Source of the DNA: Eledone cirrhosa
Lineage: Eukaryota
Assembly (NCBI GenBank): GCA_964016885.1
Contig: OZ024742.1
Span: 52,700,001 to 52,764,000 of the forward strand
DNA: 64,000 nt
Reading direction: 5' to 3'
The notes below the pieces were generated by a model. That model did not search any database. It was not told the DNA's origin and worked only from the letters and a program-made list of their open reading frames with translations. Shown one piece after another: positions 16,008-60,986 of this stretch (position 1 is the stretch's first letter; each line of letters starts with the position of its first letter). The translations under genes and the position numbers were made by a program.

Positions 16008-16114
16008 AAAATACTTGTTCATCTAAACTATAATAAAGGAAGGTCTGCGGGACTGCGTACGGTTTATTTCTTTTAATCCAGTTAGTAAAATAAGTTGGAT
16101 TACTTTGAATAAAT

Positions 16115-16230
16115 AATTGTTTCTACTTTAGGCACAAGGCCAGCAATTACCCAGTGCATTACTGGTACTTTATTTTATCGACCCCGTAAGGATGAAAGGC
16201 AAAGTCAACCTCGGCGGGATTCGAACTCAG
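16115..16230 (-). mobile_element. 5'-truncated SINE copy with 20-bp TSD
   Basis: GATTACTTTGAATAAATAAT on both sides. Confidence 0.85.
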
Positions 16231-16904
16231 ATTACTTTGAATAAATAATGAATGAATAATACATAATTTATGTACTAAATTTCGTAAACATAAATAATTT
16301 CGTAAAATTAAATAATTTAAAATTGACTTCTTTTCAAAGCTGCACTTCCGGTATATCGTCGCCACCACCATCACTTCAACTACCATATATATAGAAAGAG
16401 AGAGTGTGTGATGAGAGAGATAGAGAGATTATGATTTTTTACACGCTGACGCGTATGAGTGTGCACATACATACATCTATATGTATGAGTATATAACTAT
16501 AATCGCTCAAACACAAACTTATAAAAATACACGGACATACATTCACACAAATACACATACATTCACACAAATACACATACTTTCACACAAATATACATAC
16601 TTTCACACAAATATACATACATTCACACATACTTTCACACAAACATACATACATTCACACATACATTTATACAAACACACACATAGTCATGATAGCAGCG
16701 TTCGGTGAAATTGGAAATGGGAGGGTAAAACAAGTATAGCGTTTTATTTATTTATTAACTCTATTTATTTAACTCTTTTTTTAAACTCATTTAATATAAT
16801 GGTTACAGAATGAAAACACTAACAAATATAATATATACAAAGGAAAGGGAAAGGAAAAAAAGAAAGAGAAAAAATACACAAACAGGAAATACACGCATCT
16901 TAGG

Positions 16905-17160
16905 CCACAGAACAAAAGGGCAACGATGGTTGCTAAACACTGTACGGCTTAATTCGGGATGTTTGTTTACAAACAAACCGAGCATTATAATAAATGTTCG
17001 GTAAATCCATACGTTCATATATATATGTGTGCATGTATGTATATATATACATACTATTGTACGTCTGTATACATATATGTATGTACGTATACATACTTAT
17101 ATTTAAGTAACAGCCGTACTAAGAGTGAGAAATGAAATTTCGTTTCATTTTTTCCATTTA
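16905..17160 (+). mobile_element. 3' portion of the roughly 430-nt HHR element family at 38225-39105
   Basis: Matches 38860-39105 (GGCAACGATGGTTGC...CAGCCGTACTAAGAGTGAGAAATGAAATTTC) and ends in (TA)n. Confidence 0.8.
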
Positions 17161-17324
17161 TATATATATATACATATACATTTACATATACATACATATA
17201 TATGTGCGTGTGTGTGTACATATATTTATATACGAACATAACCAAGTGAAGTGAAATGCTGTTAGAGAAATGAACATTCCAGTTTGGCTCCAAAACAACA
17301 CATGGCACAGATAGACATATAAAT

Positions 17325-19944: not shown

Positions 19945-20849
19945 AAGATTTTTAAACGCGTGTGACACACATTTTTACAATGTTTTTAGAAAAATTATTT
20001 TTACAAATATTTACAAAGTGCAGTTTGTATTACAATCGGAACTCTGCCTATACTCGATTGCAATATATAAAGAGAAACAAGATACAAAGATATATTTCTT
20101 TATTTGGCACAAGGGCGCACAAAAATGGGACATTACAGAACATGAATATACGCTATTTTGAAGTGTTTAAAACATTTTTACAAACAAAAATTTAGAATCG
20201 TTTTGTACAAACGATAAATTAAAAAATATTTGTACAAACTTTTACGATAGACTTTCATCTTATCTATTAACCGCCTAACCCTAACCCTAACGTCAATATA
20301 TTACATTTTTTGAAAAATACTTAATATAAAGTTTTTAAAAATCATATAACGACGAAATAACAAAAATAAATGAACTAGGAAAACAAACAAAAAAAACATG
20401 GCGGATGCTTTTGAGCAACACTTACTCTGATTGATTGAAAATTAGCCAATGGCATGTAATCACCACGGCCACGGACAGACCATGAAAAAAAATTGACGAT
20501 CTACACATATATGTTAGAACACTAAAATGACTAAAACATTCTGTTGTTAGTCACTTCCTGTCTAACCGATAAATAGGTAGAGAAGTTACAGATGTAAAAA
20601 GTAAAAAGTAAAATATAAGATAGGGTACATTAAAAAATAAGAAAATGAGACAAAGGAAAATATAAAGAAAGAAATAAGTGAGAGCGTGTAAGTACATAGT
20701 AGTAGATTTTGAGTAAGTGTTCTTTTAAGGATTCGCTGGTGAGTTAGTGCTAACATGAGAAACCAGATTCGAGATGTACATAGATACGTGTAGAGGGTCC
20801 GATAAAAGAAAAGACAATAAATTAGAGATTAATTGGCGGATACATGTAT

Positions 20850-20960
20850 AATTGTTTCTACTTTAGGCACAAGGCCAGCAATTACTCAGTGCGTTACTGG
20901 TACTTTATTTTATCGACCCCGTAAGGATGAAAGGCAAAGTCAACCTCGGTGGGATTTGAA
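20850..20960 (-). mobile_element. 5'-truncated SINE copy (another partial copy at about 19565-19652)
   Basis: Conserved SINE body and tail. Confidence 0.8.
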
Positions 20961-20964
20961 ATAA

Positions 20965-22345
20965 TATTTATGGGTTAGGGATGACGGGACATTTGATAAA
21001 CGCTTGTTGTAAATGTTTTGCTGATTGTTCTATCTTAATTGAGTTGATGCTGTTTCAGGGAGAGAGGGTGAAAGAAATGTTCAGAGATTTATGATCCAGT
21101 GACCAGTTGGCCGTTTGATAGCTAATAGTAGTGCGATGGTGTGTATTCTATATGTTAAAATCTAGGTGGTTCAGTACTAATTTGGGGATTGCTGGTTCAA
21201 ATCATGGTGGTTTGAAGTTTGTGAATCTAGTAGCTATTTTATGCCTACTGAAAATAGATCTTTTTATTTTGCTGTTAAACAGCATCCAATCGTACCTTAA
21301 GATATGTAGTAGTTCTAGATTACAAAGCCCGCAGTGGGACATACCGTTGCTGTAGGCTTTTGCTACCGATAATTTTGACCAGCTAATCTTATATTCTAGG
21401 TTTTTGTCCTTAAGCTGCCAGATTTTATTGGTGAGCGTCATAGAGTACTCCAGTGCACGGTACTTCATGGAGTGTCTGTGGACGTACCACCTTTTCTTGA
21501 ACTCCCCATCCGTGGAACCTATGTAGTGCCAAGTAGAATTGCCTAAATTCACAGTACACAGGTATACCATACTCGAATCCAGGCATCTATTCCGTAGTGG
21601 GCACTTATCCGGTAGGTGGCCATTACAATTTGAGGTTTTATTTTGTGCAGGTTCATCGTTGCGGTTTGGTAAGTTGTTGTGGGCGGGTTGTGATTTAGAC
21701 CTATTAATGTTTTGTTGTGATGCGTTCTGGTGCGTTTGTGGTTGTGATGTTGTTATGTGTTTGTGTTTTGTATTTGGTACTATGGTGCGTGTTGGAAGGT
21801 TAATTTATTTAGATATATTTTTGTGGATTCTATGTTGGCTGCAGTAGAGTAGGAAAGTTTTATAGTTTTTCTATTGAAGATTTTATGGTATTTGTGTAGT
21901 GTAGGGAAGTGCTTATCTATTAGTTTAAAGAATGTAGAAGGTAGTTTAGTTGTTATAGAGGAGTTGAATATTGGATTGAACCATAGGTACTTTCTATGTC
22001 TGGATCTTCTATAGTTTTGGGGGGCTCCTTGTATTAGTGTTCTGTTCGGTTATTTTTGGTGTTCATTGTCTAATTCTATGCTTAGTCCTATGCTTGTTAT
22101 TTCTATATGAGCGGTTAGTGTTGTTGTCGTTAGATTTGTTGCTGCTGTCTCTATCTAGTATGTATTCCAGCTTCTCCTTATGTCCAGCCTTATGTAAAGC
22201 TATATTATAATAGTTTGCGTGTTCGTTAAACATTTCTAGGTTCGAAGATAGGCGGGATATTCCGAGGGATATACTATGTGCTATGGAGTTAATTATGGAT
22301 CGAGGGTGGTTTTAGTTATAACTAATGTAGGATAGATTTTCGTTA
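20965..22345 (-). mobile_element. Degenerate Penelope-like element (RT thumb + GIY-YIG), related to the 40427-42265 type
   Basis: YLWFNP motif near 21980, then CNGHLPDKCPLRNRC, VYLCTV..WHYIGSTDGEFKKRWYVH and CGLCNLE. Confidence 0.8.
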
Positions 22346-23452: not shown

Positions 23453-23656
23453 GGGGTGTCCCAAAAACTGTATACACACTTCAAAAGTATTCTAATAAAT
23501 ATGTGTATGTATATATATATATATGCATGAGTGACTGTTTTCTTTCCTGTGTACATGTGGTGTATGTGTGAATGTATGTGTGTCCATGTGTGTGTATATA
23601 AAGTTATATATATATATATATATATGTGTGTGTATATAAAGTTCTATATATATATA

Positions 23657-24153
23657 TAACAAAGGAAATGTGGTAAGGAACCAGATGGACCATAACGCAC
23701 CAGAGTACTCAATGCTTAGAGTAGTAGAGTGGGAAATAGGAAAAACTATGACCCCGACGGCAGAGCTCAAGCCGTTTCGACGGCTATTTCTGGACTAAAT
23801 TAGAATTTTTAGCCTGGTGAATAAATAGCCGAACTTGTCAAGGGGTACTTCCTTATATGGGAAGATAGTAGTTGTCAAGAGGATTGGTTAAAATTTGTTG
23901 TAAACACAAATAATTATTTCTACTTTACAAGGCCAGCAATTACCCAGTGCATTACTACACAAATAATGGCATGATAGACTTATTTGTGTTTACAACAAAT
24001 TTTAACCAATCATCTTGACAACTACAATCTTCCCATATAAGGAAGTTCTCTCTTGACAAGTTCGGCTATTTATTCACCAGGCTAAAAATTCTAATTTAGT
24101 CCAGAAATAGCCGTCGAAACGGCTTGAGCTCTGCCGTCGGGCTCATACTTTTT

Positions 24154-24157
<4 letters not shown>
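23657..24157. mobile_element. Fold-back mini-derivative of the 39153-43280 PLE family with two U3-A8 HHRs (23751-23846 minus, 24048-24142 plus)
   Basis: Same tail and pLTR end as 39153. Inverted arms, (TA)n flanks, and a roughly 45-bp SINE tail with TSD ACACAAATAAT in the loop. Confidence 0.85.
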
Positions 24158-24204
<47 letters not shown>

Positions 24205-24309: not shown

Positions 24310-24779
<470 letters not shown>

Positions 24780-25518
24780 AGTATATCTACCAACATATGT
24801 ATACTGATGTATACCCATGCTAGCAAATATATATGTTATGTCCTACTACCTTTGTGGTTCTATGCAGGGGATGCAAAACAATTATATGAAAGACGTAAAA
24901 TAAGAAAATTTTAAAAATTAAAAATTAACTTACTAAAATTTTCACTCCAACTAATTAGTTTCTGTACGGGAATAAATATAGTTACGCAACGTAACTATAG
25001 AGAAGTCCTTACGTCATCAGGGAGTCTATTCTCAGCCAAGTTCCAAGGCAATGCGCGGACACTAGGAACCCATATAAAAATAATAATTCAGTGGATGGTA
25101 TTTTCTTATTTTACGTCTTTCATATAATTGTTCTGCATCCCCCTGCATAGAACCACAAAGTTACTAGGACATAACATATATATTTACTAGTATGTGTATA
25201 CATCAGTATACATATGTTGGTAGATATACTAATTCTCTATATTTATCTCCAAATTATTGTTGAGCAAAACTTGCCAAAATTTACTGCTATGGTTCATAGT
25301 AGTAGTTAGGCTCTTGTCATAATACCACCCCACTCCTCACTGATTAACCTCAATGTCACGTGATTGATTCTTTAGAATTTTCCACTGACCAAGTAGGCAG
25401 TGAATTTTTTCAGTGCCCTGGAATTTAGTCCCCGCTAGCTTTATTCCATCCACTGAATTATTATTTTTATATGGGTTCCTAATGTCCGCGCATTGCCTGG
25501 GAACTTAGCTGAGAATAG

Positions 25519-25600
25519 ACTCCCTGATGACGTAAGGACTTCTCTATAGTTACGTTGCGTAACTATATGTATTCCCTTACAGAAACTAATTAGTTGGAGT
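25519..25600 (+). ncRNA. Type-I hammerhead ribozyme, unit 1 (antisense copy at 24944-25025)
   Basis: ACTCC-CTGATGA-(C)GTAAGG..CCTTAC(A)-GAAAC-TAATTA-GTT-GGAGT, with an inner hairpin TATAGTTACG/CGTAACTATA in stem II. Confidence 0.88.
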
Positions 25601-26057
25601 GAAAATTTTAGTAAGTAAGTTAATTTTTAATTTTTAAAATTTTCTTATTTTACGTCTTTCATATAATTGTTCTGCATCCCCTGCATAGAACCACAAAGGT
25701 ACTAGGACATAACATATATATTTGCTAGCATGGGTATACATCAGTATACATATGCTGGTAGATATACTAATTCTCTATATTTATCTCCAAATTATTTGTT
25801 GAACAAAACTTGCCAAAATTTACTGCTATGGTTCATGGTAGTAGTTATGCTCTTGTCATAATACCACCCCACTCCTCACTGATTAACCTCAGTGTCACTT
25901 GATTGATTCTTTAGAATTTGCCACTGACCAAGTAGGCAGTGAATTTTTTCAGTACCCTGGAATTTAGTCCCCGCTAGCTTTATTCCATCCACTGAATTAT
26001 TATTTTTATATGGGTTCCTAGTGTCCGCGCATTGCCTGGGAACTTAGCTGAGAATAG

Positions 26058-26139
26058 ACTCCCTGATGACGTAAGGACTTCTCTATAGTTACGTTGCGTA
26101 ACTATATTTATTCCCTTACAGAAACTAATTAGTTGGAGT
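26058..26139 (+). ncRNA. Type-I hammerhead ribozyme, unit 2
   Basis: Same motif as 25519-25600. Confidence 0.88.
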
Positions 26140-26195
26140 GAAAATTTTAGTGAGTAAATTAATTTTTAATTTTAAAAATTTTCTTATTTTACGTC

Positions 26196-26264
<69 letters not shown>

Positions 26265-29725: not shown

Positions 29726-30275
29726 AGGTAAGTTATTCCGGGTTGAATCCGGGTTGAAAGTATATATACGTACATATATATAACAACATATTAATAGTTA
29801 CGCACATTCGTGTACATATGCTGTAACACATTCATTATATATCGTATAAAATATGCATTTGGGACAGAGACGCGCACACAGACACACACTACACAAATAT
29901 TTTCACACCCTCTGGTGTCAATATAACCAACACCATTACTAAGTCCCATATAAAAGATGCATTCAAATGCAAAAATGACAATATACATTCATGCACACAC
30001 ACATATGCACAAATACATACATACATACATGCATACATACATACATACATACATACATACATACATACATACATACATACATACATACATACATACATAC
30101 ATACATACATGCATATGTACATACATACATGTTTACATACATGCATGCATATATATATATACAGACATACCTTCAGTTATTCTCTCATACATACATGCAT
30201 ATATATGTACATATATATATATATATATATGCATATTTACACATACACTCATATATATAATACATACATACATAC

Positions 30276-30924
30276 ATGGTGGCTGCCAACACGTTTTCGA
30301 GTACGGCCACTATTTTATATCCATGTAGGAGAACCCCTACCGATGCGCTGAACGAGTGTGGCTTTTTAGTCCAGCCAGCGACTTGAAAACTCTGGTACAA
30401 ACACTACACTTGTGACAATTATTGACACCTAGTGCTGGGCCCATGGCACCATGTGACCCAAGGTGTCGTGTGAGATCACTACTCGACCTGCATACCCTTC
30501 CACAAACATCACATGTCATCGTCTGATGAACACTTATAGCCCCACAGGTGCCTGCTTCCCTGTTCTTGTGCACTCTCAGGTGACTCTTTAGACCTGCCAT
30601 GCTCAGACAAACCCTATTACAGGTCTCACATGTCAGGTCAGGCCGTCTGTCAGTGCCTTCGGGAAGGCCAACATGGATTCCTTTCCGGACATCTCTTTTT
30701 AGTGTCGCGTGCCTTCTTCTTGTTTCCTCAAATAGACTCTTGCCACCAGCCACTGCTTTCCTCCACTGCGATCGGTCGCTAGCGCATGCTTCCCAGTGCT
30801 CACAAGGGATGTTACTTTTCTTGAGTGCCTCCTTGATGCAGTCCTTAAAACGCATCATGGGTTTGCTCGCGTTCCTTTTTCCCATTTGGAGCTCGCCATA
30901 AAGCAGCTGCTTCGGCATTCGCAT
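30276..30924 (-). mobile_element. 3' end of an RTE-clade LINE encoding three C2H2 zinc fingers, with a (TGTA)n tail
   Basis: [29 protein letters not shown] (RTE C-terminus), then CETC..HLRVH, CDVC..HLGSH, CSVC..HTRSAH. ORF 30337-30924. Confidence 0.88.
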
Positions 30925-31669: not shown

Positions 31670-31791
31670 ATACATACATATATATATATATATATACATA
31701 CATATAATATATACATACATATATACATACATACATACATACAAACATACATACATACATACATACATACATACATACATACATACATACA

Positions 31792-31825
<34 letters not shown>

Positions 31826-31830
31826 CATAC

Positions 31831-32437
31831 ATGGTGGCTGCCAACTCGTTTTCGAGTACGGCCACTACTTTATATCCATGTAGGAGAACACCTACCGATG
31901 CGCTGACGAGTGTGACTTTTTAGTCCAGCCAGTGACTTGAAAACTCTGGTACAAACACTAAACTTGTGACAATTATTGACGCAGTGCTGGGCCCATGGTA
32001 CCATGTGACGACAAGCGCAGAGAGATCTCCAGATATAAGGCAATGCCTGTGCCGTGAAGCTTTTATAGTGAGCAAAGGCACTGCACAAAGCCAGTCCCAC
32101 TCTCTTAACCAAGATGATATTTACCAAAAAGAAGAACAAGTCAACATCATTGGATACCATCAGGGTTGCAGGTGTTATATCAGAGTTTTCCTTCTCCTAG
32201 AATTCTGCCCTGACAAAGGCTAAGGGGTCATCTCTCCCGGTGATTTTGGATGGCCATTGACTCTTAAGAGCTCCTTTGCCCTTTGACAGGTTTTGTTTTT
32301 AATCCTGCAGGATGTCCAAAGTCACCCTCCTCACCAAGAAACCTTGGTGGGGTTGCCAGTTTAGTTGCCAACGACTCGACCATGGGACAGGTTGTACTGG
32401 AATACATGTTACCAGTAGCACCAAGTGGTGACCTGAC
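31831..32437 (-). mobile_element. Non-autonomous RTE-derived element of about 600 bp, copy 1
   Basis: The last roughly 180 bp match the RTE end at 30276-30456. The 5' part has the RTE-5'UTR-like motif GGAGAAGGAAAACTCTGA. (TACA)n flanks. Confidence 0.85.
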
Positions 32438-32467
32438 ATATACATACATACATACATACATACATAC

Positions 32468-32498
<31 letters not shown>

Positions 32499-34817: not shown

Positions 34818-35023
34818 TGGTTTCTTACATAGGCATAAGGCCATCAAATTTGGGGGAGGGAAATTTCGACCCCAGTGCGTGACTGGTACTTTTTAATCGA
34901 CCCCGTAAGGATGAAAGATAAAGTTAACCTTGGCGGTATTTGAACTCAGATCATAAAGGGCCATAACTCTATGCTACAAAGCATGAGGTCCGACCCTCTA
35001 CCGATACTGCGAATCCACCGCCC
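34818..35023 (-). mobile_element. tRNA-derived SINE (dominant family variant)
   Basis: Conserved head and body. Confidence 0.85.
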
Positions 35024-35126
35024 TCATTTCATGCCATATAATGCCTGATGGTTGGCAAATATGTAATAAAAAGTCCTGGCGTATGCGTATGTATGAATGT
35101 ATGTATGTATATCATTATCATTCATT

Positions 35127-35370
35127 AGGACGGTGGATTTGCAGTATCAGTAGAGCGTCGGACAACATGCTTTGCGGCATATAGTTACATCATTTTACGT
35201 TCTGGGTTTAAATCCAGCCGAGGTTAGCTTTGCTTTCCATCCCTACAGGATCGATAAAATAAAGCACCAGTGATGCACTGGGTTCGATTTAAGTGACTTT
35301 CTCTTCCACCTCACCCCTACCCCCACCAAAAGAAAATTGTTGGCCTTATACCTAAACCAGAAAACATCGT
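35127..35370 (+). mobile_element. tRNA-derived SINE (dominant family, divergent), head-to-head with the previous copy
   Basis: GGACGGTGGATTTGCAGTATCAGTAGAG head, GATAAAATAAAGCACCAG body, GGCCTTATACCTAAACCAGAAA tail. Confidence 0.8.
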
Positions 35371-37993: not shown

Positions 37994-38224
37994 AATATAT
38001 ATATATATATATATATAAAGTAGGCACGCTCATAAAGTATAATCTCACTTTACTTCACGCTATGCAAACTTAATATATTTTATGAATTTATTAAAATATT
38101 TTAAGCCTTACTGAGCAGGTATTTTGGTTTGAAGCCAAACGAAATGAAGTAAGACGCCAACAGTTTCCATTCCCGTTTCACAGCCAAATCTATATCTACA
38201 CAATAAATATATAAAGAAAATATA

Positions 38225-39105
38225 TATATATACAGACGTACAGTAGTATGTATATAGATACATACATGCACACATATATATATATATATGTACGTATGGG
38301 TTTACCGAACATTTATTATAATGTTCGGTTTGTTTGTAAACAAACAGCCCGAATTAAGCCGTACAGTGTTCGGCAACCATCGTTGCCCTTTTGTTCAACG
38401 CTGACAAAGGGACGATGAACTAGTTTCTAGCTTATTAGCTGTCATCAGCACCGTATACTTTCCTTTCAGTCAATTGAACGTTTGAAAGTATATACTTTCC
38501 TTATGCATATTAACGGCTGAGCAGCCTAATTTGCATATCCAGTGAGTTAGTCGGCCGGGCGTACCGAATACGATAAATGGAAAAAATGAAATTTCATTTC
38601 TCACTCTTAGTACGGCTGATACTTAAATATAAGTATGTATACGTACATACATATATGTATACAAACGTACAGTAGTATGTATATACATACATGCACACAT
38701 ATATATATGTACGTATGGGTTTACCGAACATTTATTCAGCCGTTAATATGCATCAGGAAAGTATATACTTTCAAACGTTCAATTGACTGACAGGAAGGTA
38801 TACGGTGCTGATGACAGCTGATAAGCTAGAAACTAGTTCATCGTTCCTTTGTCAGTGTTGAACAAAAAGGCAACGATGGTTGCCGAACAGTGTACGGCTT
38901 AATTCGGGCTGTTTGTTTACAAACAAACCGAGCATTATAATAAATATTCGGTAAATCCATACGTACATATATATAAGTGTGAATATATGTATCTATATAC
39001 ATACTACTGTACATCTGTATACATATATGTATGTACGTATACATACTTATATTTAAGTATCAGCCGTACTAAGAGTGAGAAATGAAATTTCATTTTTTCC
39101 ATATA
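38225..39105. mobile_element. Retrozyme-like element: about 1.2 tandem units of roughly 430 bp on minus (38225-38735) joined to an inverted unit (38736-39105), two HHRs
   Basis: ACGTACAGTAGTATGTAT...GGGTTTACCGAACATT recurs near 38236 and 38666. The right part is the reverse complement of the left. TA-rich flanks. Confidence 0.82.
38802..38844 (+). ncRNA. Minimal type-I hammerhead ribozyme (mirror copy at 38412-38454, minus strand)
   Basis: ACGGTG-CTGATGA-(C)AGCT-GATA-AGCT(A)-GAAAC-TA-GTT-CATCGT, with palindromic ACTAGT. Confidence 0.85.
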
Positions 39106-39154
<49 letters not shown>

Positions 39155-39245
39155 CGAAGGAAATGTGGTAAGGAACCAGGTGGACCATAACGCACCAAAG
39201 TACTCAATACTTGAGGTAGTAGAGTGGGTAATAGGAACCAGTAAG

Positions 39246-39339
39246 ACCCCGACAGCTGAGCTCAAGCCGTTTCGACGGCTAATTCTGGACTAAATGAAAA
39301 TTTATCCTGGTATTTAAATAGCCGATCTTCTCAAGGGGT
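39246..39339 (-). ncRNA. U3-A8 type-I hammerhead in the 3' pLTR (second copy at 43174-43267, plus strand)
   Basis: ACCCC-TTGAGAA-GATCGGCTA..TAGCCGTC-GAAAC-GGCTTGAGCTCAGCT-GTC-GGGGT. Confidence 0.8.
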
Positions 39340-40426
39340 AATTCCATATATGGTCAAAGTGATTGTCAAAAATCAGTAGTAATTCTGTGGTTGCAAATTA
39401 GTAGGGGAGATGGTGGCTAAACCTGCCAGTAGGAGAAAGAGGGGAGGGGGTGGAGTAGACCCAATCAAGCGTTGGTAGTGCCAGCTACAGCTGGGCATGA
39501 GGTCAAAGAAAATACAGGGGAGGGGGAGGGGGAGGAAGTCGGAACGGTAGGTAGAACAATGGGGGGTAGAAATAGGAAAGAAAAAATACTGAGAGTGAAG
39601 AAAAGCAAATAAGTGTAAAGAAAAAAGTAAAGTAAATTAAATTCTACGACCTAGGTGTCAGGCTATTGTTAGGCGAGAATAAAATAAAGAAAGAAAGAAA
39701 GAAGTAAATAAATAAATAAATAAATAAGGAAATAAGTAAGAGAACTAGGTGGGACGGATAAGGCAAGGACCCTTTTAAGAGGTATAAGTACGTAAATGAT
39801 ACGGTGACGGGTCAACAAAAGGGGCCAAAATACTAAAGAGACTACCACGAAATAAACAATAAAGGTTTCCATCCCGGGCCAGCAACGACCCAGTGCAGCA
39901 AAGTGAACTTGTACGAGATAATAATTCTGAGTCCCGAGAAAAATATATACTAATGCTAACTCTAAAAGATCTAAAACAAGCTACATGAAAGTTCGTACGA
40001 AATAAAGGTAGAATACGGAGAAATAAATTCAGAATCCACCCCGCCCAGAAGAAAAGCGAAGCAAGAAATACTGAAACGAAAAAATAAGGCATGTGCCACT
40101 AAGAAATATAGAGGGCACAGAGAATAGTGGGAGCGGTCGGAAAAAGGGGGAAAATATCCGGGGTCTAAGCCAACTGCTATAAAGGGCGGAGTCCGCCAAA
40201 TCTATCAAAGACTAGGGGAGGGGGGTGGGGGTACTAAGGCTACATGGGGCCAAAGGGCCGCCTCGGGTGGGCGAGAAAAGACGCCGACAAAGGAGAAGAG
40301 CTGGGGTAGAAGGACAAAGGAGAGAGGGGGGAAGGAAATAAAGGAAGCGATAAAAGAATACAAAGAAGATCTTACGTCTTCCTTGGCAAGCAGGGGTTAC
40401 CCATTGCAAAATCGGCAACTGGGGTG

Positions 40427-42265
40427 TTATAGCCCTAGTCTACCCCCCCCCCCCCCCGGGTCATTATGGGGTTTGAGGGCGAGGTAAGTCCTACGCAATC
40501 TATGTTTACATGCAGTAACCAGTTCATCCTTCTTGTTTAGGAGTTGGTCCGTCGAAAACAGCATTTGTAAAGTTTCCTCCGAGCATAAATTGCACGGACG
40601 GCGTCCTCCCGTGTAAGAATTGGCTCTGGACAGTAATCTCCAAGTGAGATCATAGGTGATGTTGTTGTCCTTGAGGTCCCATATGTGGCCCGAAAGTGTA
40701 GTGGCGTGACGCCGGGCCGGGTTTCGGAAGGTATGTCTATGTTGGTATAGCCGGGTCTTGAAGTCACGTGCGGTAAGTCCTATATAGGCTTTGTTGGAGG
40801 TATCCGTCCTCACGTTGCACTGGTAGATCACATTACGGTCTCTGCATCTATTGTCGAGTGGGCAAATAGATCTATCCGGGCAGTTACACCTCCTGGTCGG
40901 TTCTCCACTGCTAATTAGGTTATTTCTGCCATCGGGGTTGAGTTTTTTGTTGTTAGAGGAGACGATGTTTTGTGCGAAGTTTGGTGTAGTGCTGTAAGAG
41001 AGTTTGATGGTATTTTTGTTAATTATGTTGTGGTAGCGGTGTTGTAATGGGAAGTGTTTTTCAATGAGCCTAAAGAATAGTTTCCCGATGGGAGTAGTCA
41101 CCTCTGCGTTGTGGGGAGGATTGAACCATGTTACATTGCGTGAGCGGCGGTGTCTCCTGCTGGTTCCGCTAATGGGAGCTGGACAGTAGGATATTTCCTC
41201 CCGGAAACCACTCCGCTTGAGGGCCTGGTTGTAATAAGGCGCATGTTCATCGAATATCCGCTCATTAGCTGACAAACGGGATATGCGGAGGGAGATGTTT
41301 TTGACCAGGTTGTTTGTGATGTTCCTAGGATGGTTTGATCGGCGGTGGATGTAGTGCAGATTGTCATTAGGTTTCCTGTATGGGTAGTACAGGTCGTTTT
41401 CGAGGTCGAGGGTTACGTCCAGGAAGTTTACTCGGGTCAGGGACGTTTGTAGGGTTATTTTAAATCCCCAGTCGCCGAAGAATCTGATTAATTGTTTCCG
41501 GACCCGATCTGTACTACTGGGGTTGTACCCTTTAAGGGTAAGGAGCCCATCATCACGGTACAATCCACCACCGAATGCAGGAAACATATCAGTGAGTTTG
41601 GCTATTAGGAATAATCCTATAAGATCAGTGACCTCCGCCGAATCCGTGGCGCCCATGCTGACGTCGAAGGGTGAGTCGGGAGCTCTTTTTATCCATTTAG
41701 AGTCGTCAAAGAGTAAGACTGTCTTCCTGGGGTGGAGGATGATTTTTCTTTCCTGGTCGGTGATGGGCACGAGTGTTTCGGCGAAGTCCAAGGCGGCAGT
41801 AAGTAGCGGTAAGGTGATTGAAGCATAGTAGCTCTCTATGTCGAACTGTATGAATTTAGTTTCTCGTTTATCCTCCATATTGCTGAACCAGGAGATTACT
41901 TCCTGGGTGTTGATCCATAGGCTAAGTCGGGTGTGTTGCTTGACTTTTGGTATCACGCGGTCTAGGATTTTTTTGCTGATTCTCCCTATGTCGGACTTCG
42001 TTGGGTTAATAAGCCTGATGGAGGGTTTACGGTCAAAATCGGATTTATGGTCCTTCAGTGTGAAGTATGGTGTCCGTGGGTCTAGAGGTTCCGTGCGGTC
42101 GGCGACCCCGACGCTGGAGGTGATTTGTTGTCCATCTCGATTTATGTCCTCGATACAAGAGTGGTTGGCCTTTTTATAGGTGGAGTTTAGGCTGCTCCTG
42201 ATCAGTGTGTGGTATCTGTCAGGGTTGACAAAGTATAGGTTCCCAGTTTTATCCGAATGCACCAT
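40427..42265 (-). CDS. PLE reverse transcriptase + GIY-YIG endonuclease (frame stays open up to the 5' inversion junction near 42304)
   Basis: DKTGNLY, IRLINP, FDIESYY, VSMG, LYRDDGL, VNFLDVTL, SNHP, WFNPP, CNC..CPL..C, VIYQC..YIGLT..FKTRLYQH, CNLCSEE. Confidence 0.95.
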   Translation of the reverse strand: MVHSDKTGNLYFVNPDRYHTLIRSSLNSTYKKANHSCIEDINRDGQQITSSVGVADRTEPLDPRTPYFTLKDHKSDFDRKPSIRLINPTKSDIGRISKKILDRVIPKVKQHTRLSLWINTQEVISWFSNMEDKRETKFIQFDIESYYASITLPLLTAALDFAETLVPITDQERKIILHPRKTVLLFDDSKWIKRAPDSPFDVSMGATDSAEVTDLIGLFLIAKLTDMFPAFGGGLYRDDGLLTLKGYNPSSTDRVRKQLIRFFGDWGFKITLQTSLTRVNFLDVTLDLENDLYYPYRKPNDNLHYIHRRSNHPRNITNNLVKNISLRISRLSANERIFDEHAPYYNQALKRSGFREEISYCPAPISGTSRRHRRSRNVTWFNPPHNAEVTTPIGKLFFRLIEKHFPLQHRYHNIINKNTIKLSYSTTPNFAQNIVSSNNKKLNPDGRNNLISSGEPTRRCNCPDRSICPLDNRCRDRNVIYQCNVRTDTSNKAYIGLTARDFKTRLYQHRHTFRNPARRHATTLSGHIWDLKDNNITYDLTWRLLSRANSYTGGRRPCNLCSEETLQMLFSTDQLLNKKDELVTACKHRLRRTYLALKPHNDPGGGGGRLGL

Positions 42266-43277
42266 GATGTCATTTGTGTTATCATACTCTGTTAAGTTGC
42301 TACGGAGATTTGGCGGACTCCGCCCTTTATAGCAGTTGGCTTAGACCCCGGATATTTTCCCCCTTTTTCCGACCGCTCCCACTATTCTCTGTGCCCTCTA
42401 TATTTCTTAGTGGCACATGCCTTATTTTTTCGTTTCAGTATTTCTTGCTTCGCTTTTCTTCTGGGCGGGGTGGATTCTGAATTTATTTCTCCGTATTCTA
42501 CCTTTATTTCGTACGAACTTTCATGTAGCTTGTTTTAGATCTTTTAGAGTTAGCATTAGTATATATTTTTCTCGGGACTCAGAATTATTATCTCGTACAA
42601 GTTCACTTTGCTGCACTGGGTCGTTGCTGGCCCGGGATGGAAACCTTTATTGTTTATTTCGTGGTAGTCTCTTTAGTATTTTGGCCCCTTTTGTTGACCC
42701 GTCACCGTATCATTTACGTACTTATACCTCTTAAAAGGGTCCTTGCCTTATCCGTCCCACCTAGTTCTCTTACTTATTTCCTTATTTATTTATTTATTTA
42801 TTTATTTACCTCTTTCTTTCTTTCTTTATTTTATTCTCGCCTAACAATAGCCTGACACCTAGGTCGTAGAATTTAATTTACTTTACTTTTTTCTTTACAC
42901 TTATTTGCTTTTCTTCACTCTCAGTATTTTTTCTTTCCTATTTCTACCCCCCATTGTTCTACCTACCGTTCCGACTTCCTCCCCCTCCCCCTCCCCTGTA
43001 TCTTCTTTGACCTCATGCCCAGCTGTAGCTGGCACTACCAACGCTTGATTGGGTCTACTCCACCCCCTCCCCTCTTTCTCCTACTGGCAGGTTTAGCCAC
43101 CATCTCCCCTACTAATTTGCAACCACAGAATTACTACTGATTTTTGACAATCACTTTGACCATATATGGAATTACCCCTTGAGAAGATCGGCTATTTAAA
43201 TACCAGGATAAATTTTCATTTAGTCCAGAATTAGCCGTCGAAACGGCTTGAGCTCAGCTGTTGGGGTCTTACTGGTT

Positions 43278-43372
<95 letters not shown>

Positions 43373-43579
43373 TTCGTTTCTGAATTTGTTTAGCAAGATT
43401 CTTTATCTGAAATCGTGTGTTGAAACCGATATTGTTATACTTTGGGAGGTGTCTTAACTACGATGTTTATATCATCTACGTAGCGGGAGTACATTATCAG
43501 GGTTAAGCTGTCTTCTAATTGGGACAGTAGACTTAAACTTAAACTTAAAGAACAATTAGAAGACAGCTTAACCCTGATA

Positions 43580-44722
43580 ATGTACTCCCGCTACGTAGAT
43601 GATATAAACATCGTAGTTAAGACACCCCCACTAGAGAACAGTCAGGAACTAGAGAAAAACACAATGGAAAGCATCCAGCAAATAGCAAACTCCATCCACC
43701 AGAGCATTAGAGTTACTATAGACTACCCAAATAGACACCCCAACCATCGATTACCTGTACTAGACACAGAGCTCTGGTTAGATACCATTAACAACCAAAA
43801 ACAAATCCTCCATTCCCATTATGCCAAACCCATGACTTCCAAACATCTGATCCACCGAAACTCGGCCATTTCGGACCATACCAAAATCAACATACTGATT
43901 GCGGATTTGGTACGGGTGATGAGAAATGTGTCCCGCATGTGCAACCCCGAAGAACTAGAGAGACACATACAACACTTCATCCACCGTATGCAGTTCTCTG
44001 GCTACAATCAGAGAGATAGAATCAGAGTGTATAGAGGAGCCAGAACCAAATGGGAAAAAATGGTAAATAATGACATAAATGGGACCTGCCCCTTGTATAG
44101 GAGCAAATTTTGGAATAGAATAGAAAGAACTAGGAACAAGGCTAATAGAATAAACTCATGGTATGATAGCAATAAATACCAGAGTGTAATGTTCATCGAT
44201 ACAACCCCAAGAGGCGAACTAGCCTACAAATTTAGAAGGGCCCTAAATAAACATAAACTCAATATTAAGATAGTAGAAAGACCAGGTACCTCCGTAAAAA
44301 CACTTATTAGCAAGACATACCCTTTTCAAAGACCCTCATGTATAGATAAGAAATGTATAACCTGTAAAATAAGCCCCCATATTAACTGTAAAACTAGAAA
44401 TGTAGTGTATAGCATAAGATGTACTGAAGGACAATGTAGAAACAAAAATATAGTGTACATAGGTGAGACAGCTCGTAGTATAGGGGAACGGATAAATGAA
44501 CACTGGCGAGACCTTCAAGATAATAAAGAATCATCTGTACTCTACCAACATGCTAAGATAGAACACAAGGGTAAATTAGAGAACATAGAAATAAAAATAG
44601 AATCTACACACAGAAAAGATGCAATGTTTAGACAAATTACAGAGGCAATAAACATAAAAGAATTACAACCAAAATTAAATAGAAAATATGAGTGGAACAG
44701 CAACATCACAACTTACAATTAA
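43580..44722 (+). CDS. PLE RT C-terminal half + GIY-YIG endonuclease
   Basis: RYVDD, DYPNRH..RLPVLD, HYAKPM, MQFSGY, C..C..C..NCKTRNVVY.I.C..C..YIGETAR..ER..EH, RQITEA. Confidence 0.9.
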   Translation: MYSRYVDDINIVVKTPPLENSQELEKNTMESIQQIANSIHQSIRVTIDYPNRHPNHRLPVLDTELWLDTINNQKQILHSHYAKPMTSKHLIHRNSAISDHTKINILIADLVRVMRNVSRMCNPEELERHIQHFIHRMQFSGYNQRDRIRVYRGARTKWEKMVNNDINGTCPLYRSKFWNRIERTRNKANRINSWYDSNKYQSVMFIDTTPRGELAYKFRRALNKHKLNIKIVERPGTSVKTLISKTYPFQRPSCIDKKCITCKISPHINCKTRNVVYSIRCTEGQCRNKNIVYIGETARSIGERINEHWRDLQDNKESSVLYQHAKIEHKGKLENIEIKIESTHRKDAMFRQITEAINIKELQPKLNRKYEWNSNITTYN

Positions 44723-44933
44723 GGACAAAATGAAAACACACACACACATAGAACAAACAACCAACCAATAACATGTAAATAAATAAATAAATAAACAAAT
44801 AGATAAATGAACATAAACACACACAGACACCCGGATGTGGCGCATGCGCAAACTGAGCACACAACACACACACAGAAACAAAATGGCGTAGGACAGAGAA
44901 AGGAGAGGCACAGAAACAAAGAAAAGAATCCCC

Positions 44934-44978
44934 AGTCACTGAAGAGGTCACAGAGTGTGTGACGAAAGGACTATGACT
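44934..44978 (+). ncRNA. Minimal type-I hammerhead ribozyme in the pLTR
   Basis: AGTCA-CTGAAGA-(G)GTCACA/TGTGAC-GAAAG-GA-CTA-TGACT. An eroded homologue lies near 52914-52958. Confidence 0.75.
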
Positions 44979-45181: not shown

Positions 45182-45916
45182 TATATAAATAACATACATA
45201 TATATATGTTTGTGTGTGTGTAATTGTTAACCATAAGGCAACCAGACAGGAAGACAACAACTGGAAACTACATGGTGGGTGGGTACTGAAAATTTAATAC
45301 TAATATCTATAACATGATAGTATTTATTTGAACATCTTTCTCTCCCTCTTTCTCTCTCTCTCTCTTTCTCTCTTTCTTTCTCTTTGCATCCTTTCGTATT
45401 TTTTACACCCCAACCTCATATGTGTACCTCTATCTCTCTTGCCTAACTTAACCAACCCTAACCTCTTTCATCTTCCGATCTCACTTTTCACCAAATATAT
45501 ATAGTTGGCCGGGCGCATAAACTCACTCGATATACAAATTAGGCTGCTCAGCCGTTAATATATAGTTGGCCAAATTTTAACATGTCCAAGAATATTATTT
45601 CCACAGACATTTGTTCAAAACATTCGGGATTAAATCCAGATTCTGCAAAACTATAAACATTTCGAGGTGTCAAATGTGTATGTTATTGTTTATAGTTAGA
45701 AACATTTCCCATAACAAGTGTACAAGTATACTTCTCTTGCAGCTCTAAAGCCGCATGTTTTTCAACGTAGCCTATAGGCACATACCTTTGCCTTCTAACG
45801 AGGATTTGTTGAAGCTGTTACTTATTACAAAATATCTATCTATTTATCCATCGTTCTCTATACAGTGCTGACTTTAAATACACACACGCGTGCGCATATA
45901 TATATATATATATATA

Positions 45917-46433
45917 TAGAAAGGATGAATATAAAATGAAAGTGCTTTTGTTAAAAAAGGAATTTATTAGGTATTGACATATGTTTCTGTAACAGACCGA
46001 ATACCTATGTATCGCTGCTTGCGTAATCATATAATGTTAGCAAGTATTCGATAGCAAATGTATAATCAGTTGTCACTTCTTCAGAGGTTTTGGATAAACT
46101 GGATAAAATCAGATAAAATCAAATACTTCAATTTTTCTGATTTTATCCAGTTTATCCAAAATCTCTGAAGAAGTGACAACTGATTATACATTTGCTATCG
46201 AATACTTGCTAACATTATATGATTACGCAAGCAGCGATACATAGGTATTCGGTCTGTTACAGAAACATATGTCAATACCTAATAAATTCCTTTTTTAACA
46301 AAAGCACTTTCATTTTATATTCATCCTTTCTACATTTCTCCGGAATATAATTTATACTCGTTGAGCAAACCTGCATGTACGCTGTTCATCTCTAACGTAA
46401 CGATATATTATCACTACATTATTGATAACCTGA

Positions 46434-46440: not shown

Positions 46441-46486
<46 letters not shown>

Positions 46487-46489
<3 letters not shown>

Positions 46490-46655
46490 CAAAGAAAGTG
46501 TGGTAAGAAACCAGATGGACCATAACACGCCAGAGTACTCGATACTTAGAATAGTAGAGTGGGTAATAGGAAAAGAGTGAGGACCCCAACTGCTGAGTTT
46601 CTACAGCTAGCTGTCGAAACGGCCGGAGCTCAGCCGTCGGGGTCCTGACTCTTTT

Positions 46656-46660
<5 letters not shown>
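46487..46660. mobile_element. Tiny fold-back stub of the 39153 PLE family (others at 53350-53463 and 62734-62930)
   Basis: Tail ATAACAAAGAAAGTGTGGTAAG...TAGGAAAA plus short inverted end ...TTTTCCTA. (TA)n on both sides. Confidence 0.85.
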
Positions 46661-46695: not shown

Positions 46696-47210
46696 CAGAG
46701 GTTAAGGTGCTTACACATGGTTGTTACTTGTTACGCTGTAACTTCGTGAGGATAAGCCGGTTCGAGCAATTCAAAAGCACGTCACGTCAGTACTTTATCC
46801 CAGCTAAAGTTGGTAATTAGAAGTGACGAAGTATCATTTATCAGATTAAGAGTAGTTAAGACGGGGTAACTTCACTATAATTGCTTTATTGCATGATATA
46901 TATTTCTATTACATAGTTATGCATGTGACTTCATCAGATGCTCATACAATCATAGGTTTAGTTATGCAATCATGTGGATATGTCACTGGTCATGTATTAC
47001 CATCCAGTTGTGATGCCAACAGACATATCATGTCTTCTGGTATCACAACAGGATGGTAATACATGACCAATGACATATCCACATGATTGCATAACTAAAC
47101 CTATGATTGTATGAGCATCTGATGAAGTCACATGCATAACTATGTAATAGAAATATATTTCATGCAATAAAACAATTTTGGTGAAGTAACCCTGTCCAAA
47201 TTATCTTAAC
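46691..47210. mobile_element. Fold-back element with inverted arms (about 46860-47018 / 47038-47195) and two HHRs
   Basis: Palindromic arms, a one-sided extension at 46691-46860, and TA flanks. Confidence 0.8.
47115..47165 (+). ncRNA. Type-I hammerhead ribozyme (mirror copy at 46891-46941, minus strand)
   Basis: GCAT-CTGATGA-AGTCACAT..ATGTAATA-GAAA-TATAT-TTC-ATGC. The mirror copy has ATC at the cleavage triplet. Confidence 0.75.
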
Positions 47211-47298: not shown

Positions 47299-47734
47299 AA
47301 GAGTACACATGAATCGGAACTAGAAGCTAGCACCATGAAGAGTATCCAGCAAATAGACCAAAGGTTCTCAGCGGGGAGCATATGCTCCCCAGGGGTGCGT
47401 TTCGAATATTCAGGTGGTGGGGCGTTTTGGAGCAAGGATGCGTTAGGGGGGCACCGGAAGACTATTTACGTAGGCAAGTTTTATAAGCCACGTGTGTAGT
47501 CTCTGAGACAGCCAGTGTGAATGCATTTGAATGAAGAAAATAAATAAAAGCTTTTCAACAAATTCCCTAGGGAGATAAAAGAAAGAAATCAAAGAAAATG
47601 AAGATAAGGACAATGTCAACTTTTACAACAGTCACAAGAACAACAGAAGCAAGAAAAGAAGCAATGGTGATGAAGGGTGTGGGTGTATACATATACATAC
47701 ACACACATGCATACGTACATATATACATACATAC

Positions 47735-48346
47735 ATGGTGGTGACTGCCAACTCGTTTTCGAGTACGGCCACTACTTTATATCCATGTAGGAGAACCCCT
47801 ACCGATGCGCTGAACGAGTGTGATTTTTAGTCCAGTCAACGACTTGAAAACTCTGGTAAAAACACTACACTTGTGACAATTATTGACACATGGTGCTGGG
47901 TCCATGGTACCATGTGACGACAAGTGCAGAGAGATCTCCAGATATAAAGCAATGCCTGTGCCGTGAAGCTTTTATAGTGAGCAAAGGCACTGCACAAAGC
48001 CAGTCCCACTCTCTTAACCAAGATGATATTTACCAAAATGAATAACAAGTCAACATCATTCGATACCATCAGGGTTGCAGGTATTATATCAGAGCTTTCC
48101 TTCTCCTAGAATTCTGCCTTGACAAAGGCTAAGGAGTCATCTCTCCCGGTGATTTTGGATGGCCATTGACTCTTAAGAGCTCCTTTGCCATTTGAAAGGT
48201 TTTGTTTTTAGTCCTGCAGGATGTCCAAAGTCACCCTCCTCACCAAGAAACCTTGGTGGGGTTGCCAGTTTAGTCGCCAACGACCCGACCATGAGACAGG
48301 TTGTACTGGGATACATGTTACCAGTAGCACCAACTGGTGACCTGAC
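47735..48346 (-). mobile_element. Non-autonomous RTE-derived element, copy 2
   Basis: Colinear with 31831-32437. Confidence 0.88.
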
Positions 48347-48393
48347 ATAGTACATACATACATACATACATACATACATACATACATACATAC

Positions 48394-48999
48394 ATGGTGG
48401 CTGCCAACTCGTTTTCGAGTACGGCCACTACTTTATATCCATGTAAGAGAACCCCTACCGATACGCTGAACAAGTGTGACTTTTTAGTCCAGCCAACGAC
48501 TTGAAAACTGGTACAAACACTACACTTGTGACAATTATTGACACAGTGCTGGGCCCATGGTACCATGTGACGACAAGTGCAGAGAGATCTCCAGATATAA
48601 AGCAATGCCTGTGCCGTGAAGCTTTTATAGTGAGCAAAGGCACTGCACAAAGCCAGTCCCACTCTCTTAACCAAGATGATATTTACCAAAAAGAAGAACA
48701 AGTCAACATCATTGGATACCATCAGGGTTGCAGGTGTTATATCAGAGTTTTCCTTCTCCTAGAATTCTGCCTTGACAAAGGCTAAGGGGTCATCTCTCCC
48801 GGTGATTTTGGATGGCCATTGACTCTTAAGAGCTCCTTTTCCCTTTGACAGGTTTTGTTTTTAGTCCTGAAGGATGTCCAAAGTCACCCTCCTCACCAAG
48901 AAACCTTGGTGGGGTTGCCAGTTTAGTCGCCAACGACCCGACCATGAGACAGGTTGTACTGGGATACATGTTACCAGTAGCACCAACTGGTGACCTGAC
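48394..48999 (-). mobile_element. Non-autonomous RTE-derived element, copy 3, tandem with copy 2 across (TACA)n
   Basis: Colinear with 31831-32437. Confidence 0.88.
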
Positions 49000-49284
49000 A
49001 TACATACATACATACATACATACATACATACACATATATACACACACAGGCCGGCGTTGGTATTTGATGAGGTTGAGAACCTGGTCAGCTTCCAGCCAGA
49101 GGTGTGGTATTTAATCTCTTTAGGTAATAAAATCTGGAGTCAAAATTCTCTCCTTACCAAAAAACATCACTCATGTCAACATCCTTACACACTTAAATAT
49201 AAATGGATGTATATATACAAATGTATAAATGCATAGCTATATACGTAGGTAAATGTATATATATGTATATATGTATGTATGTAG

Positions 49285-50965: not shown

Positions 50966-51874
50966 GTACATAGATAGATAGAAAGATGTGTACCAAACAC
51001 ATATTTCTTACTCTCTCTGTCTCTCACTCTTTCTCTCTCTATATATATATATATGGCGTTGTTATTTGACGTTGTTGAAAAGAGCAGTGGCCTTTGACCC
51101 GGCGATAAAGACTGGAGACAAAATTCTTTCTGTACCAAAAACAAGGCACACACACAAGTTTGTGTCTGTGTGTGTGTATTAGTGCGCGCGCGCGTATGTG
51201 TGGGTGTGTTTGTGTGTGGGTGTGTGTGTGTGTGTGGTAGTGTGCGCGCGCGTATATGTGTGTGTGTGTGTATCTATCTATGTATATATATAAGGGATAC
51301 AAATATGTTTTGCTCACTGTCACCAAACATCTCAATTTATTCGTTGCAACTAAGTTTGTGATCGAGGCACTATATTTTGCAATTACTATTTTTCCCTTGA
51401 GTTTATGATTCAAGAGAAAAGTAAGAAATTCTTCATATTTTGCATCTTTTGTATTGTGACTTTACAGTTTGAATTGTAGAATTGTCTATCCACTCAAAAT
51501 ATTACAACAGCTAACAGTGAAATATAGAATTTAAAAAAAAAAGCTTTTTCGACTGAGATCAAATCTTTGAGAACATTCACGTCTATTTTTCAAAAGTATA
51601 TAATTTGAAATAGTTTTGGACTGAAACTTTTTTGTATTTAATTCGTACGAGTATTTTTTAAAGATCTTTTTAAAGATTCCAACATAACTTGATTTGGCCC
51701 AGTAATCTACTGATATTAAAATCAGTAGTACATTGAAAAATGGAAAAATAGGGTTAGGGGGCGTTTTGTGATTTTGAGGGACAAAGGGGGGCGTTTGGCC
51801 GAAATGTGTTGAGAACCTTTGCACTAGAGCATTCAGATAATAGTAGAGCACCCCACTAAGCACCCCAACCATAG

Positions 51875-53052
51875 ATTACTCATGTTAGACACAGAACTCT
51901 GGAATGAAAATAGGAATGATAAAGCCCAAATCCTCCATTCTCATTATACCAAACCCATGACCTCCAAGTACCTGATCCACTGTAACTCAGCTAACTCAAA
52001 TAGTGCTAAGTTCAACATCTTGATAGCGGACCTGGTAAGGGTAATGAGAAATGTATCCCTCATGTGCGATCCAACAGAGTTAAAGAGACACATACAGCAC
52101 TTTATCTACAGCTTGCAGTTCTCTGGTTATAACTAAAGAGACGAGATTAGTGTGTACAAAGGAGCCATAGCTTAATTCTAAACCATTATGGAGAATAATA
52201 TGAATGGTATGGCATAGAAAAGACTAAGAAAAAGATAAGGAAGGCCAACTCATGGTATGACTGCCAAAATTACCCGCATATCATGTCCGCCGATGCTACC
52301 CATAGAAGCGAACTAGCGTTTCGGTTTAGAAAAGCTTTACAAAATCAATTAACCTTAGGATCAAATTAGAAGAAAAACCAGGAACTACCATAAAATCCTG
52401 GATCGGTAGGACATACCACTTTAGGAAAACGCCCTGTACTGATAGAAACTGTGTAGTCTGTAAGATAATCCCGATGACAAACTGTAAAACTAAACTTGTA
52501 GTCTATAGGATTAGATTACTGAGGGACGACAACATACATAGGATAGGAGAAAGATTTAAGGAAACTTGCGAGAGCTTAAGGAGAGAAGCTTATCGGTGCT
52601 ATACAAATATGACAAATTAGAACACGAGGGCTTAATAGATAACATAGAAATAAAGATCCTATCCACACATAGAACTGACACAACACTCAGACCAATTACA
52701 GAGGCCACACACATAACGGAAAACCCGATTGGAATAGCAACAGGTCGCAATTTAATGACTGAAGAGAGAATAAAGACAGAAATAAAAAAGACACAGATAG
52801 CAAAATAGCAAATGATACAAACACATGAAACACAAAACATGCCCTCAAAACAAACAAAGACAAGATGGAGTAGAAGTTTAAGACCAAGAAAGAGAGAAGT
52901 CACAAAACAGATAATCATTTAGGAGATCACAGAATGTGTGACGAAAGATCTTTGTCTTTAAACAAATGAATAATGAACAATACAGAAAATTATATGGTAT
53001 GTGTGTCTCTTTCTATTGGCAATATTGGCAACATGACCACCGAAATATAACA
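51875..53052 (+). mobile_element. Degenerate PLE, same family as 43419-45135
   Basis: LDTELW..QILHSHYTKPMTSK..ILIADLVRVMRNVS..LQFSGY, and a shared tail TATTGGCAACATGACC. Confidence 0.85.
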
Positions 53053-53067: not shown

Positions 53068-53351
<284 letters not shown>

Positions 53352-53459
53352 CGAAGGAAGTGTGGTAAGGAACCAGACGGACCATAACACACCAGTGGGT
53401 AATAGGAAAATGTTTAACCACGACGGCAGAGCTCAAGCCGTTTCGGGGTTAAACAGTTT

Positions 53460-53500
<41 letters not shown>

Positions 53501-60022: not shown

Positions 60023-60092
<70 letters not shown>

Positions 60093-60094
<2 letters not shown>

Positions 60095-60974: not shown

Positions 60975-60986
60975 TATATATCGGGA

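Follow-up and report, generated by a model that had tools for sequence, protein, structure and literature searches.

The locus at 38.2-39.1 kb of the window, as we term the whole 64-kb stretch of DNA analysed, is best read as an insertion of a non-coding element of about 420-430 nt that bears a hammerhead ribozyme (HHR) and was mobilised in trans by the reverse transcriptase (RT) and GIY-YIG endonuclease of a Penelope-like element (PLE). That PLE machinery made the insertion is very probable. To the fuller account, in which a short non-autonomous unit was copied from linear RNA, we assign a probability of about one half. The layout of the insertion, its ends, the ribozyme motif and the lack of coding sequence are directly observed.

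Self-comparison of the window resolved the locus into two arms (Table 1). The minus arm (38736 to 38222, 515 nt) spans 1.2 units and repeats itself between 38222-38317 and 38651-38736. One anchor places the period at 419 nt; at three others, beyond a (TA)n expansion, it is 429 nt. It is joined to an inverted plus arm (38737-39102, 366 nt, 0.86 unit). The first-pass annotation, which had described a unit of roughly 430 nt in tandem and inverted copies, with more than one unit on the minus strand joined to an inverted one, is borne out; both of its palindromes, at 38329 and 38372, are present and recur in the inverted arm. The unit has a GC content of 37%, is non-coding and closes on itself at 419-429 nt. 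The tandem overlap of 82-92 nt comprises 82 aligned bases plus the 10-nt (TA)n expansion and excludes the HHR. The plus arm is 5'-truncated and meets the minus arm 5' to 5' with an overlap of about 1 base. Two types of 3' end are seen. The long type occurs at 39102, 38573 and 17161, and the short type, at 38229, lies 81 nt upstream. No segment of the five in the window reaches 5' of the joint at 38572/38573. Both outer ends of the locus run into (TA)n. The flanks at 38213-38221 and 39101-39109 both read AAAATATAT facing the insertion, as would be seen after a symmetric cut of a palindromic AT-rich site; given the low complexity of the sequence, this agreement is likely due to chance.

Table 1. 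Features of the repeat unit and its relatives in the window
Feature	Position	Strand	Description
Main unit copy	38229..38572 (344 nt)	minus	Runs from head-to-tail joint through HHR to short 3' end in (TA)n
Pseudo-LTR copy	38573..38736 (164 nt)	minus	5'-truncated, ends at long 3' end, head-to-tail to main copy, without HHR
Inverted copy	38737..39102	plus	5'-truncated, runs to long 3' end, then (TA)n
81-nt 'tail'	39022..39102	plus	Interval from short to long 3' end
Type I HHR, 43 nt	38412..38454	minus	Loop AAUA, predicted cut between 38418 and 38417
Type I HHR, 43 nt	38802..38844	plus	Loop GAUA, predicted cut after 38838
Hairpin palindrome	38329..38344		Repeated at 38912 and 16962
Hairpin palindrome	38372..38387		Repeated at 38869
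Perfect 16-nt palindrome	38484..38499		Upstream of HHR, repeated at 38757
Octamer ATTTGCAT	38529..38536	plus	
Truncated relative	16910..17161	plus	5'-truncated, without HHR, long 3' end then (TA)n
Tiny insertion	45497..45571	plus	From 5' part of unit, about 40 nt direct and a few inverted nt

Plus and minus arms are 95% identical, with 14 substitutions in 284 aligned bases and a further 8 in 161. The arms of the adjoining PLE differ at only 3 of 973 positions; the arms at the locus are thus far more divergent, which points to an older insertion or to differing templates. Divergence in the tandem overlap is lower (2/82 versus 22/445), but not significantly so (p=0.56). Across the four segments a single site is informative, and there both minus pieces agree with each other against the plus arm and the 16910-17161 copy, a grouping that may weakly favour the use of two templates.

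The family is dispersed, as had been noted earlier, with relatives at 16910-17161 and 45497-45571 (42-nt match at 45520-45561, 95%). The former starts about 21 nt downstream of the predicted cleavage site, and the latter maps within the first 70 nt past the joint. Direct repeats of 14 nt at 45497 and 45558, found nowhere else in the window, bracket the 45.5-kb piece, whose site is again AT-rich or (TA)n sequence. The left repeat ends in 9 nt able to pair with element RNA adjoining the end of the direct piece. Pairing this good occurred at only 3 of 127,982 positions, which we read as the two repeats and the element itself. The 45.5-kb piece may therefore be a twin-primed insertion with a target-site duplication, the alternative being a local duplication of element sequence. 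At the main locus a target-site duplication is unreadable within (TA)n. Exact 31-nt and 30-nt patterns of the unit gave 0 loci in prokaryotic genome contigs, as expected because the repeat is eukaryotic.

A compact 43-nt HHR in each orientation had been claimed, and one is indeed present per arm, at 38454 to 38412 and at 38802-38844. The motif is made up of a 6-bp helix I (one wobble), CUGAUGA, a C.A followed by a 4-bp helix II with tetraloop, GAAA, helix III and GUU; in the plus arm helix I continues past an internal loop. A stricter HHR scan returned five motifs in the window and none in any of 50 Markov controls. Rfam gave no match at gathering score across the 64 kb, and the 86 sub-threshold matches around the locus were chiefly to AT-rich miRNA models, with hammerhead absent. 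Isolated 43-mers fold no better than shuffles (z -0.8 and -1.4), and the predicted active fold lies 1.5-2.5 kcal/mol above the minimum. Helix III is a perfect 8-nt palindrome, AACUAGUU, and because it has no loop, activity is predicted to require a partner HHR, a dimer mode described for metazoan HHRs (PMC4209133). Helix II is closed by C.A instead of the usual G-C. By our reading by eye of the table in PMC8557442 File S2, from which the likeness of the HHRs was also judged, the helix II base is mismatched (U.U or U.C) in 15 of the 25 listed Hydra-clade families, and C.A closes helix II in PLE-X1_cBra. A U.U at this position is tolerated (PMC7229834, PMC3088659). The predicted read-through transcript of the locus folds back on itself, and all 43 HHR bases are then paired with the opposite arm.

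Coding sequence is lacking. The longest stop-free frame of the unit region is 62 codons, and the locus has no ORF with the RT and GIY-YIG domains of an autonomous EN+ PLE. A tblastn search with 127 PLE proteins gave a single match at E<0.01, a microsatellite artefact. A Hydra C-terminal profile scored -2.2 bits, a value equalled by 111 of 200 shuffles, as against 170 and 103 bits for two control PLEs from the window. We rejected a stretch of 13 residues directly 3' of the HHR that resembles the LNKR motif of the Hydra C terminus (E 0.04-0.1), as it failed this profile test and its order is wrong for a Hydra PLE. Comparison with 14 regions of the window revealed no sharing of sequence or 3' ends above the shuffle maximum (best equalled by 1 of 40 shuffles). 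The helper would most likely be a (TA)n-targeting PLE such as those of the Hydra clade, a link drawn solely from the form of the HHR, the (TA)n target and the length of the tail. The adjoining coding PLE has a 3' UTR of 1.27 kb; 430 nt without an ORF are therefore not proof of non-autonomy.

The locus fits the PLE scheme point by point, with a unit of 0.42 kb versus 2-3 kb. In the published scheme, a PLE copy contains a partial tandem that forms a pseudo-LTR (pLTR); at its 5' end lies an inverted 5'-truncated copy, and one of the ends has a tail (PMC8557442). Here, 38573-38736 lies head-to-tail to 38229-38572, 38737-39102 is the adjoining inverted 5'-truncated copy, and the tail at one end measures 81 nt. 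PLE tails are usually 30-40 nt (PMC8557442); in the Hydra-clade family of the window, a long and a short end lie about 80 nt apart at four of five two-armed loci. AT-rich or (TA)n sequence is found at both ends of the locus, at the 17161 end and at the 45.5-kb site, and (TA)n is the target of Hydra and Naiad PLEs (PMC8557442). The tandem-plus-inverted layout, which the first-pass annotation had treated as special, is thus standard for PLEs and is shared by the adjoining Hydra-clade PLE; opposite-strand HHR pairs 100-700 bp apart are also known, having been ascribed to probable truncated PLEs (PMC4209133). Three opposite-strand pairs of HHR cores occur in the window (3686/4159, 38448/38808 and 46937/47119). 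Local inverted duplications form 16 clusters there, of which two are chains of matches linking dispersed repeats. A PLE protein studied in vitro cleaves AT-rich DNA on both strands and extends them; it initiates at two sites within the RNA, thereby setting the tail, and uses uncleaved RNA, HHR cleavage being dispensable (PMC11167929). This behaviour would therefore explain two outward-facing 3' ends and intact HHRs. Furthermore, non-autonomous PLEs with pLTRs are known (PMC8557442).

The enzyme, the order of events and the RNA template are what we infer. An endonuclease would cut both strands at a (TA)-rich site, and both target 3' ends would prime reverse transcription at internal sites of the element RNA. 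At the left end, synthesis would start at the short site and copy 344 nt through the uncleaved HHR; upon arriving at the template's 5' end, or by a jump, it would resume at the long 3' site and continue for 164 nt, creating the pseudo-LTR. At the right end, synthesis would start at the long site and copy 366 nt, probably from a second RNA, and the two cDNAs would finally be joined 5' to 5'. The copy at the main locus is probably a dead end, because it has one HHR per strand and a fold-back read-through RNA that hides both. Several findings count against this account: the unit boundary is seen at one joint only (38572/38573), no sequence links the unit to an autonomous PLE among the 14 window regions, and at 45.5 kb homology seems to have guided the priming, while PAc initiates without it (PMC11167929). 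The 81-nt tail, the single weak informative site and the lack of a readable target-site duplication are further points on this side.

All pieces might instead be what 5' truncation has left of the 3' UTR/pLTR of an autonomous PLE, its ORF lying outside the window; the 420-nt period would then reflect a single truncation event and a subsequent template jump. We consider this rather unlikely, although most PLE copies are 5'-truncated, opposite-strand HHR pairs have been ascribed to such copies (PMC4209133), the joint was observed once, and the adjoining Hydra PLE, with 1.27 kb of non-coding 3' region, yields ORF-less inverted remnants at 23655-24158, 46485-46660 and 62733-62928. Failure of all five segments to pass 5' of the joint, with the 45.5-kb piece lying within 70 nt after it, argues against remnants, as does the absence of an ORF remnant from the unit, where the longest frame is short and the profile score is at shuffle level. 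Also, the fold of the non-repetitive core is much better than that of shuffles (z -4.5, 0/150), so some real hairpin content remains. A simple insertion rearranged later at the DNA level, through slippage, or through duplication and inversion that hairpins drive among AT-rich palindromes, would draw on a unit rich in (TA)n-like palindromes and on a window with 16 inverted-duplication clusters. This origin is very improbable: the arms stop at the long 3' site as in the independent 16.9-kb copy, at the one informative site the plus arm groups with this remote copy and not with its neighbour, and an unrelated PLE family repeats the two-end layout.

The repeat had been described at first pass as a retrozyme family. 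What stands of this is a dispersed, non-coding unit of about 420-430 nt with a type I HHR and the size and GC content of metazoan retrozymes; the multimer does not, the locus having 1.2 units and one HHR per strand. In metazoans, retrozymes form tandem repeats, and their RNA is cleaved from HHR to HHR and circularised (PMC7229834), and a working definition calls for two consecutive HHR-bearing units (bioRxiv 10.64898/2026.07.22.740005). The HHR here has a full core and three helices (0/50 controls), and the unit, at 419-429 nt and 37% GC, lies within the 150-450-bp, low-GC, non-coding range. Two or more HHR units on the same strand are present neither at the locus nor elsewhere in the window. 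The tandem overlap lacks the HHR; therefore no strand has two ribozymes, and no monomer is excisable at the locus. TRF listed no array of period near 430 among 129 rows, no same-strand HHR pair occurs in the 64 kb, and self-comparison detected no LTR-like pair. Filing the element as a retrozyme is not justified from the window, because the array was looked for and not found. The element acts like a PLE-mobilised HHR element within the retrozyme/pLTR continuum (bioRxiv 10.64898/2026.07.22.740005).

A true non-LTR retrozyme could still operate from remote arrays, with monomers cut by dimeric HHRs and circularised, and a PLE RT making 1.2 turns to give the minus arm. This is improbable in our estimate, despite a family fit by size, GC content, type I HHR and lack of an ORF (PMC7229834), a palindromic helix III that can form a dimer duplex of -6.6 kcal/mol, a weak helix II base as in an axolotl retrozyme (PMC7229834), and the finding that monomeric retrozyme derivatives are common (bioRxiv 10.64898/2026.07.22.740005). 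In addition, the cDNA passes the cleavage site intact in both arms, and the 419-nt circle has a predicted fold of -134 kcal/mol (70% paired, z -7.9), with the HHR fold just 2.5 kcal/mol dearer. Nonetheless, HHR helices have a probability of just 3-8% in the circle ensemble. The antisense circle folds equally well (z -7.9), z values of -6 or below were also obtained for 4 of the 25 background windows, and the z-score of the circle was discounted as proof of structured RNA. No copy begins at the cleavage site, that at 16.9 kb included, and 8 of 9 predicted Xenopus dimers failed to cleave (bioRxiv 10.64898/2026.07.22.740005), which together with the missing same-strand HHR pair weighs against a retrozyme. 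The specific proposal that the minus arm is the fossil of a PLE RT circling a 420-nt retrozyme RNA 1.2 times, while the second strand primed a second cDNA, we judge quite improbable. In that case the 45.5-kb piece would be a record of twin priming guided by RNA-DNA microhomology of 9 nt and 4 nt. If true, the locus would be a genomic footprint of a PLE copying a retrozyme circle, a step so far only proposed; it would suggest that the helper is Hydra-like and targets (TA)n, and would show homology-guided priming, unseen in the one in vitro PLE study (PMC11167929).

The octamer near 38529, suggested as a promoter element to be checked for conservation across copies, is present; a promoter role finds no backing. 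ATTTGCAT occurs five times in the window versus 4.74 expected, a chance level, and reads ATACAAAT in the 45.5-kb copy. It is thus mutated in one of the two copies that cover the position and in the only other one besides the main copy, as the plus arm ends before it. The promoter of newt satellite 2 reportedly includes an octamer. That satellite, for which an snRNA-type internal promoter is cited (PMC2220036), provides a precedent for the idea, which is not supported here.

The window as a whole is microsatellite-rich, AT-rich, animal-type DNA with several retrotransposon ORFs, and a Pfam scan of seven ORFs identified GIY-YIG in two and RT in one. Next to the locus, and sharing its (TA)n tract, lies a young 5'-truncated Hydra-clade PLE at 39152-43282 (minus strand, 637-aa frame) with inverted arms of 977 nt at 99.3% identity; ORF-less remnants of this family are found at 23655-24158, 46485-46660, 53347-53460 and 62733-62928. 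A C3-G8 scan detected no HHR in the 3' region of the family (39235-39335 minus, 43180-43260, 24040-24130), though the motif is reputedly universal in the clade. By eye, the core in this region reads UUGANAA and is accompanied by GAAA and a long helix II, which may make it a U3-A8 variant (PMC4209133); other copies of the family are without the expected U ahead of the cut site. A well-formed type I HHR (z -5.5, 0/200 shuffles) whose helix I is extended stands alone at 8590-8670, directly after an (ATT)n tract, and has no relative in the window. At 43484-44975 is the 3' half of another PLE (412-aa frame), whose 3' region contains a minimal HHR at 44939. It is accompanied by a short inverted piece (43445-43629), and a related fragment lies at 51822-52716. 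Inverted duplications at 3582-4263 and 46846-47209 have opposite-strand HHR-like cores with TATAT at the helix III position, and HHR-like motifs with long helix II regions occur at 57504 (+) and 58258 (-).

Other repeats surround these. A unit of about 700 nt, bounded by (ATAC)n, is in tandem at 47689-49046 and dispersed at 31779-32485 and 30222-30457, with a zinc-finger-like frame in a piece near 30.3-31.1 kb. A SINE-like repeat of 120-200 nt, with copies 85-97% identical, lies at 3128-3323, 5130-5321, 9660-9853, 13293-13470, 16110-16232, 20848-20968, 34871-35024 and 35126-35283; the copy at 9660 presumably resembles an octopus SINE. A non-LTR retrotransposon at 942-2879 has a 645-aa frame (RVT_1, E 4.9e-17; weak zf-RVT). 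Terminal inverted repeats of 110 nt at 60086-60981 flank a transposase-like frame (60278-60661), and the whole is probably a Tc1/mariner element in decay. At 24761-26204, direct and inverted repeats are nested, with a 567-nt tandem within inverted arms, and at 45914-46335 there is a near-perfect 422-nt palindrome; both are fold-back insertions.

We found no description of the unit family in the literature searched, and it may already be catalogued in Repbase or Dfam. The motifs tried did not appear in the supplements of PMC8557442 and PMC13282606, and a comparison of 16-mers of the unit (n=6) with the literature gave one chance match, in a pine Copia integrase (PMC5382025). Class, layout and ribozyme variant each have precedents, making this one more HHR repeat in a PLE-filled genome. 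Its modest value is as a test case for how retrozymes enter genomes and how the tandem and inverted structures of PLEs arise: because the small unit has two 3' ends that are fixed, a single head-to-tail joint and a mini-insertion that was likely twin-primed, a circular template can be distinguished from a template jump.

Among known systems, metazoan non-LTR retrozymes resemble the element in their non-coding 150-450-bp unit, low GC, type I HHR and short palindromic helix III (PMC7229834), in co-occurring with PLEs, by which their mobilisation has been proposed, and in giving rise to monomer derivatives (PMC7229834; bioRxiv 10.64898/2026.07.22.740005). Here, in contrast, the arms are inverted, there is no array of HHR-bearing units, and the element is known from sequence alone. 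The Chlamys PLEs such as MRC1 are likewise ORF-less, PLE-mobilised and arranged in head-to-tail copies with pLTRs; unlike it, they belong to green algae, mostly are without HHR and have 3' ends in common with an autonomous partner (PMC8557442). HHRs of Hydra-clade PLEs also have opposed unpaired bases closing a 4-bp helix II with tetraloop, and several Hydra magnipapillata families have the ACU...AGU helix III (PMC8557442 File S2). Compared with these and with PLE-X1_cBra, helix III is loopless here, and the likeness noted is architectural. The minimal HHR pairs of truncated PLEs are similarly placed on opposite strands 100-700 bp apart (360 bp here), whereas they typically have a longer, G-C-closed helix II and almost no helix III (PMC4209133). 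EN+ PLEs differ in having an RT/GIY-YIG ORF, a unit of at least 2-3 kb versus about 0.42 kb and a tail of 30-40 versus 81 nt, yet they share with the locus the partial tandem, the inverted copy, two 3' ends, (TA)n and an HHR in the terminal region (PMC8557442, PMC11167929).
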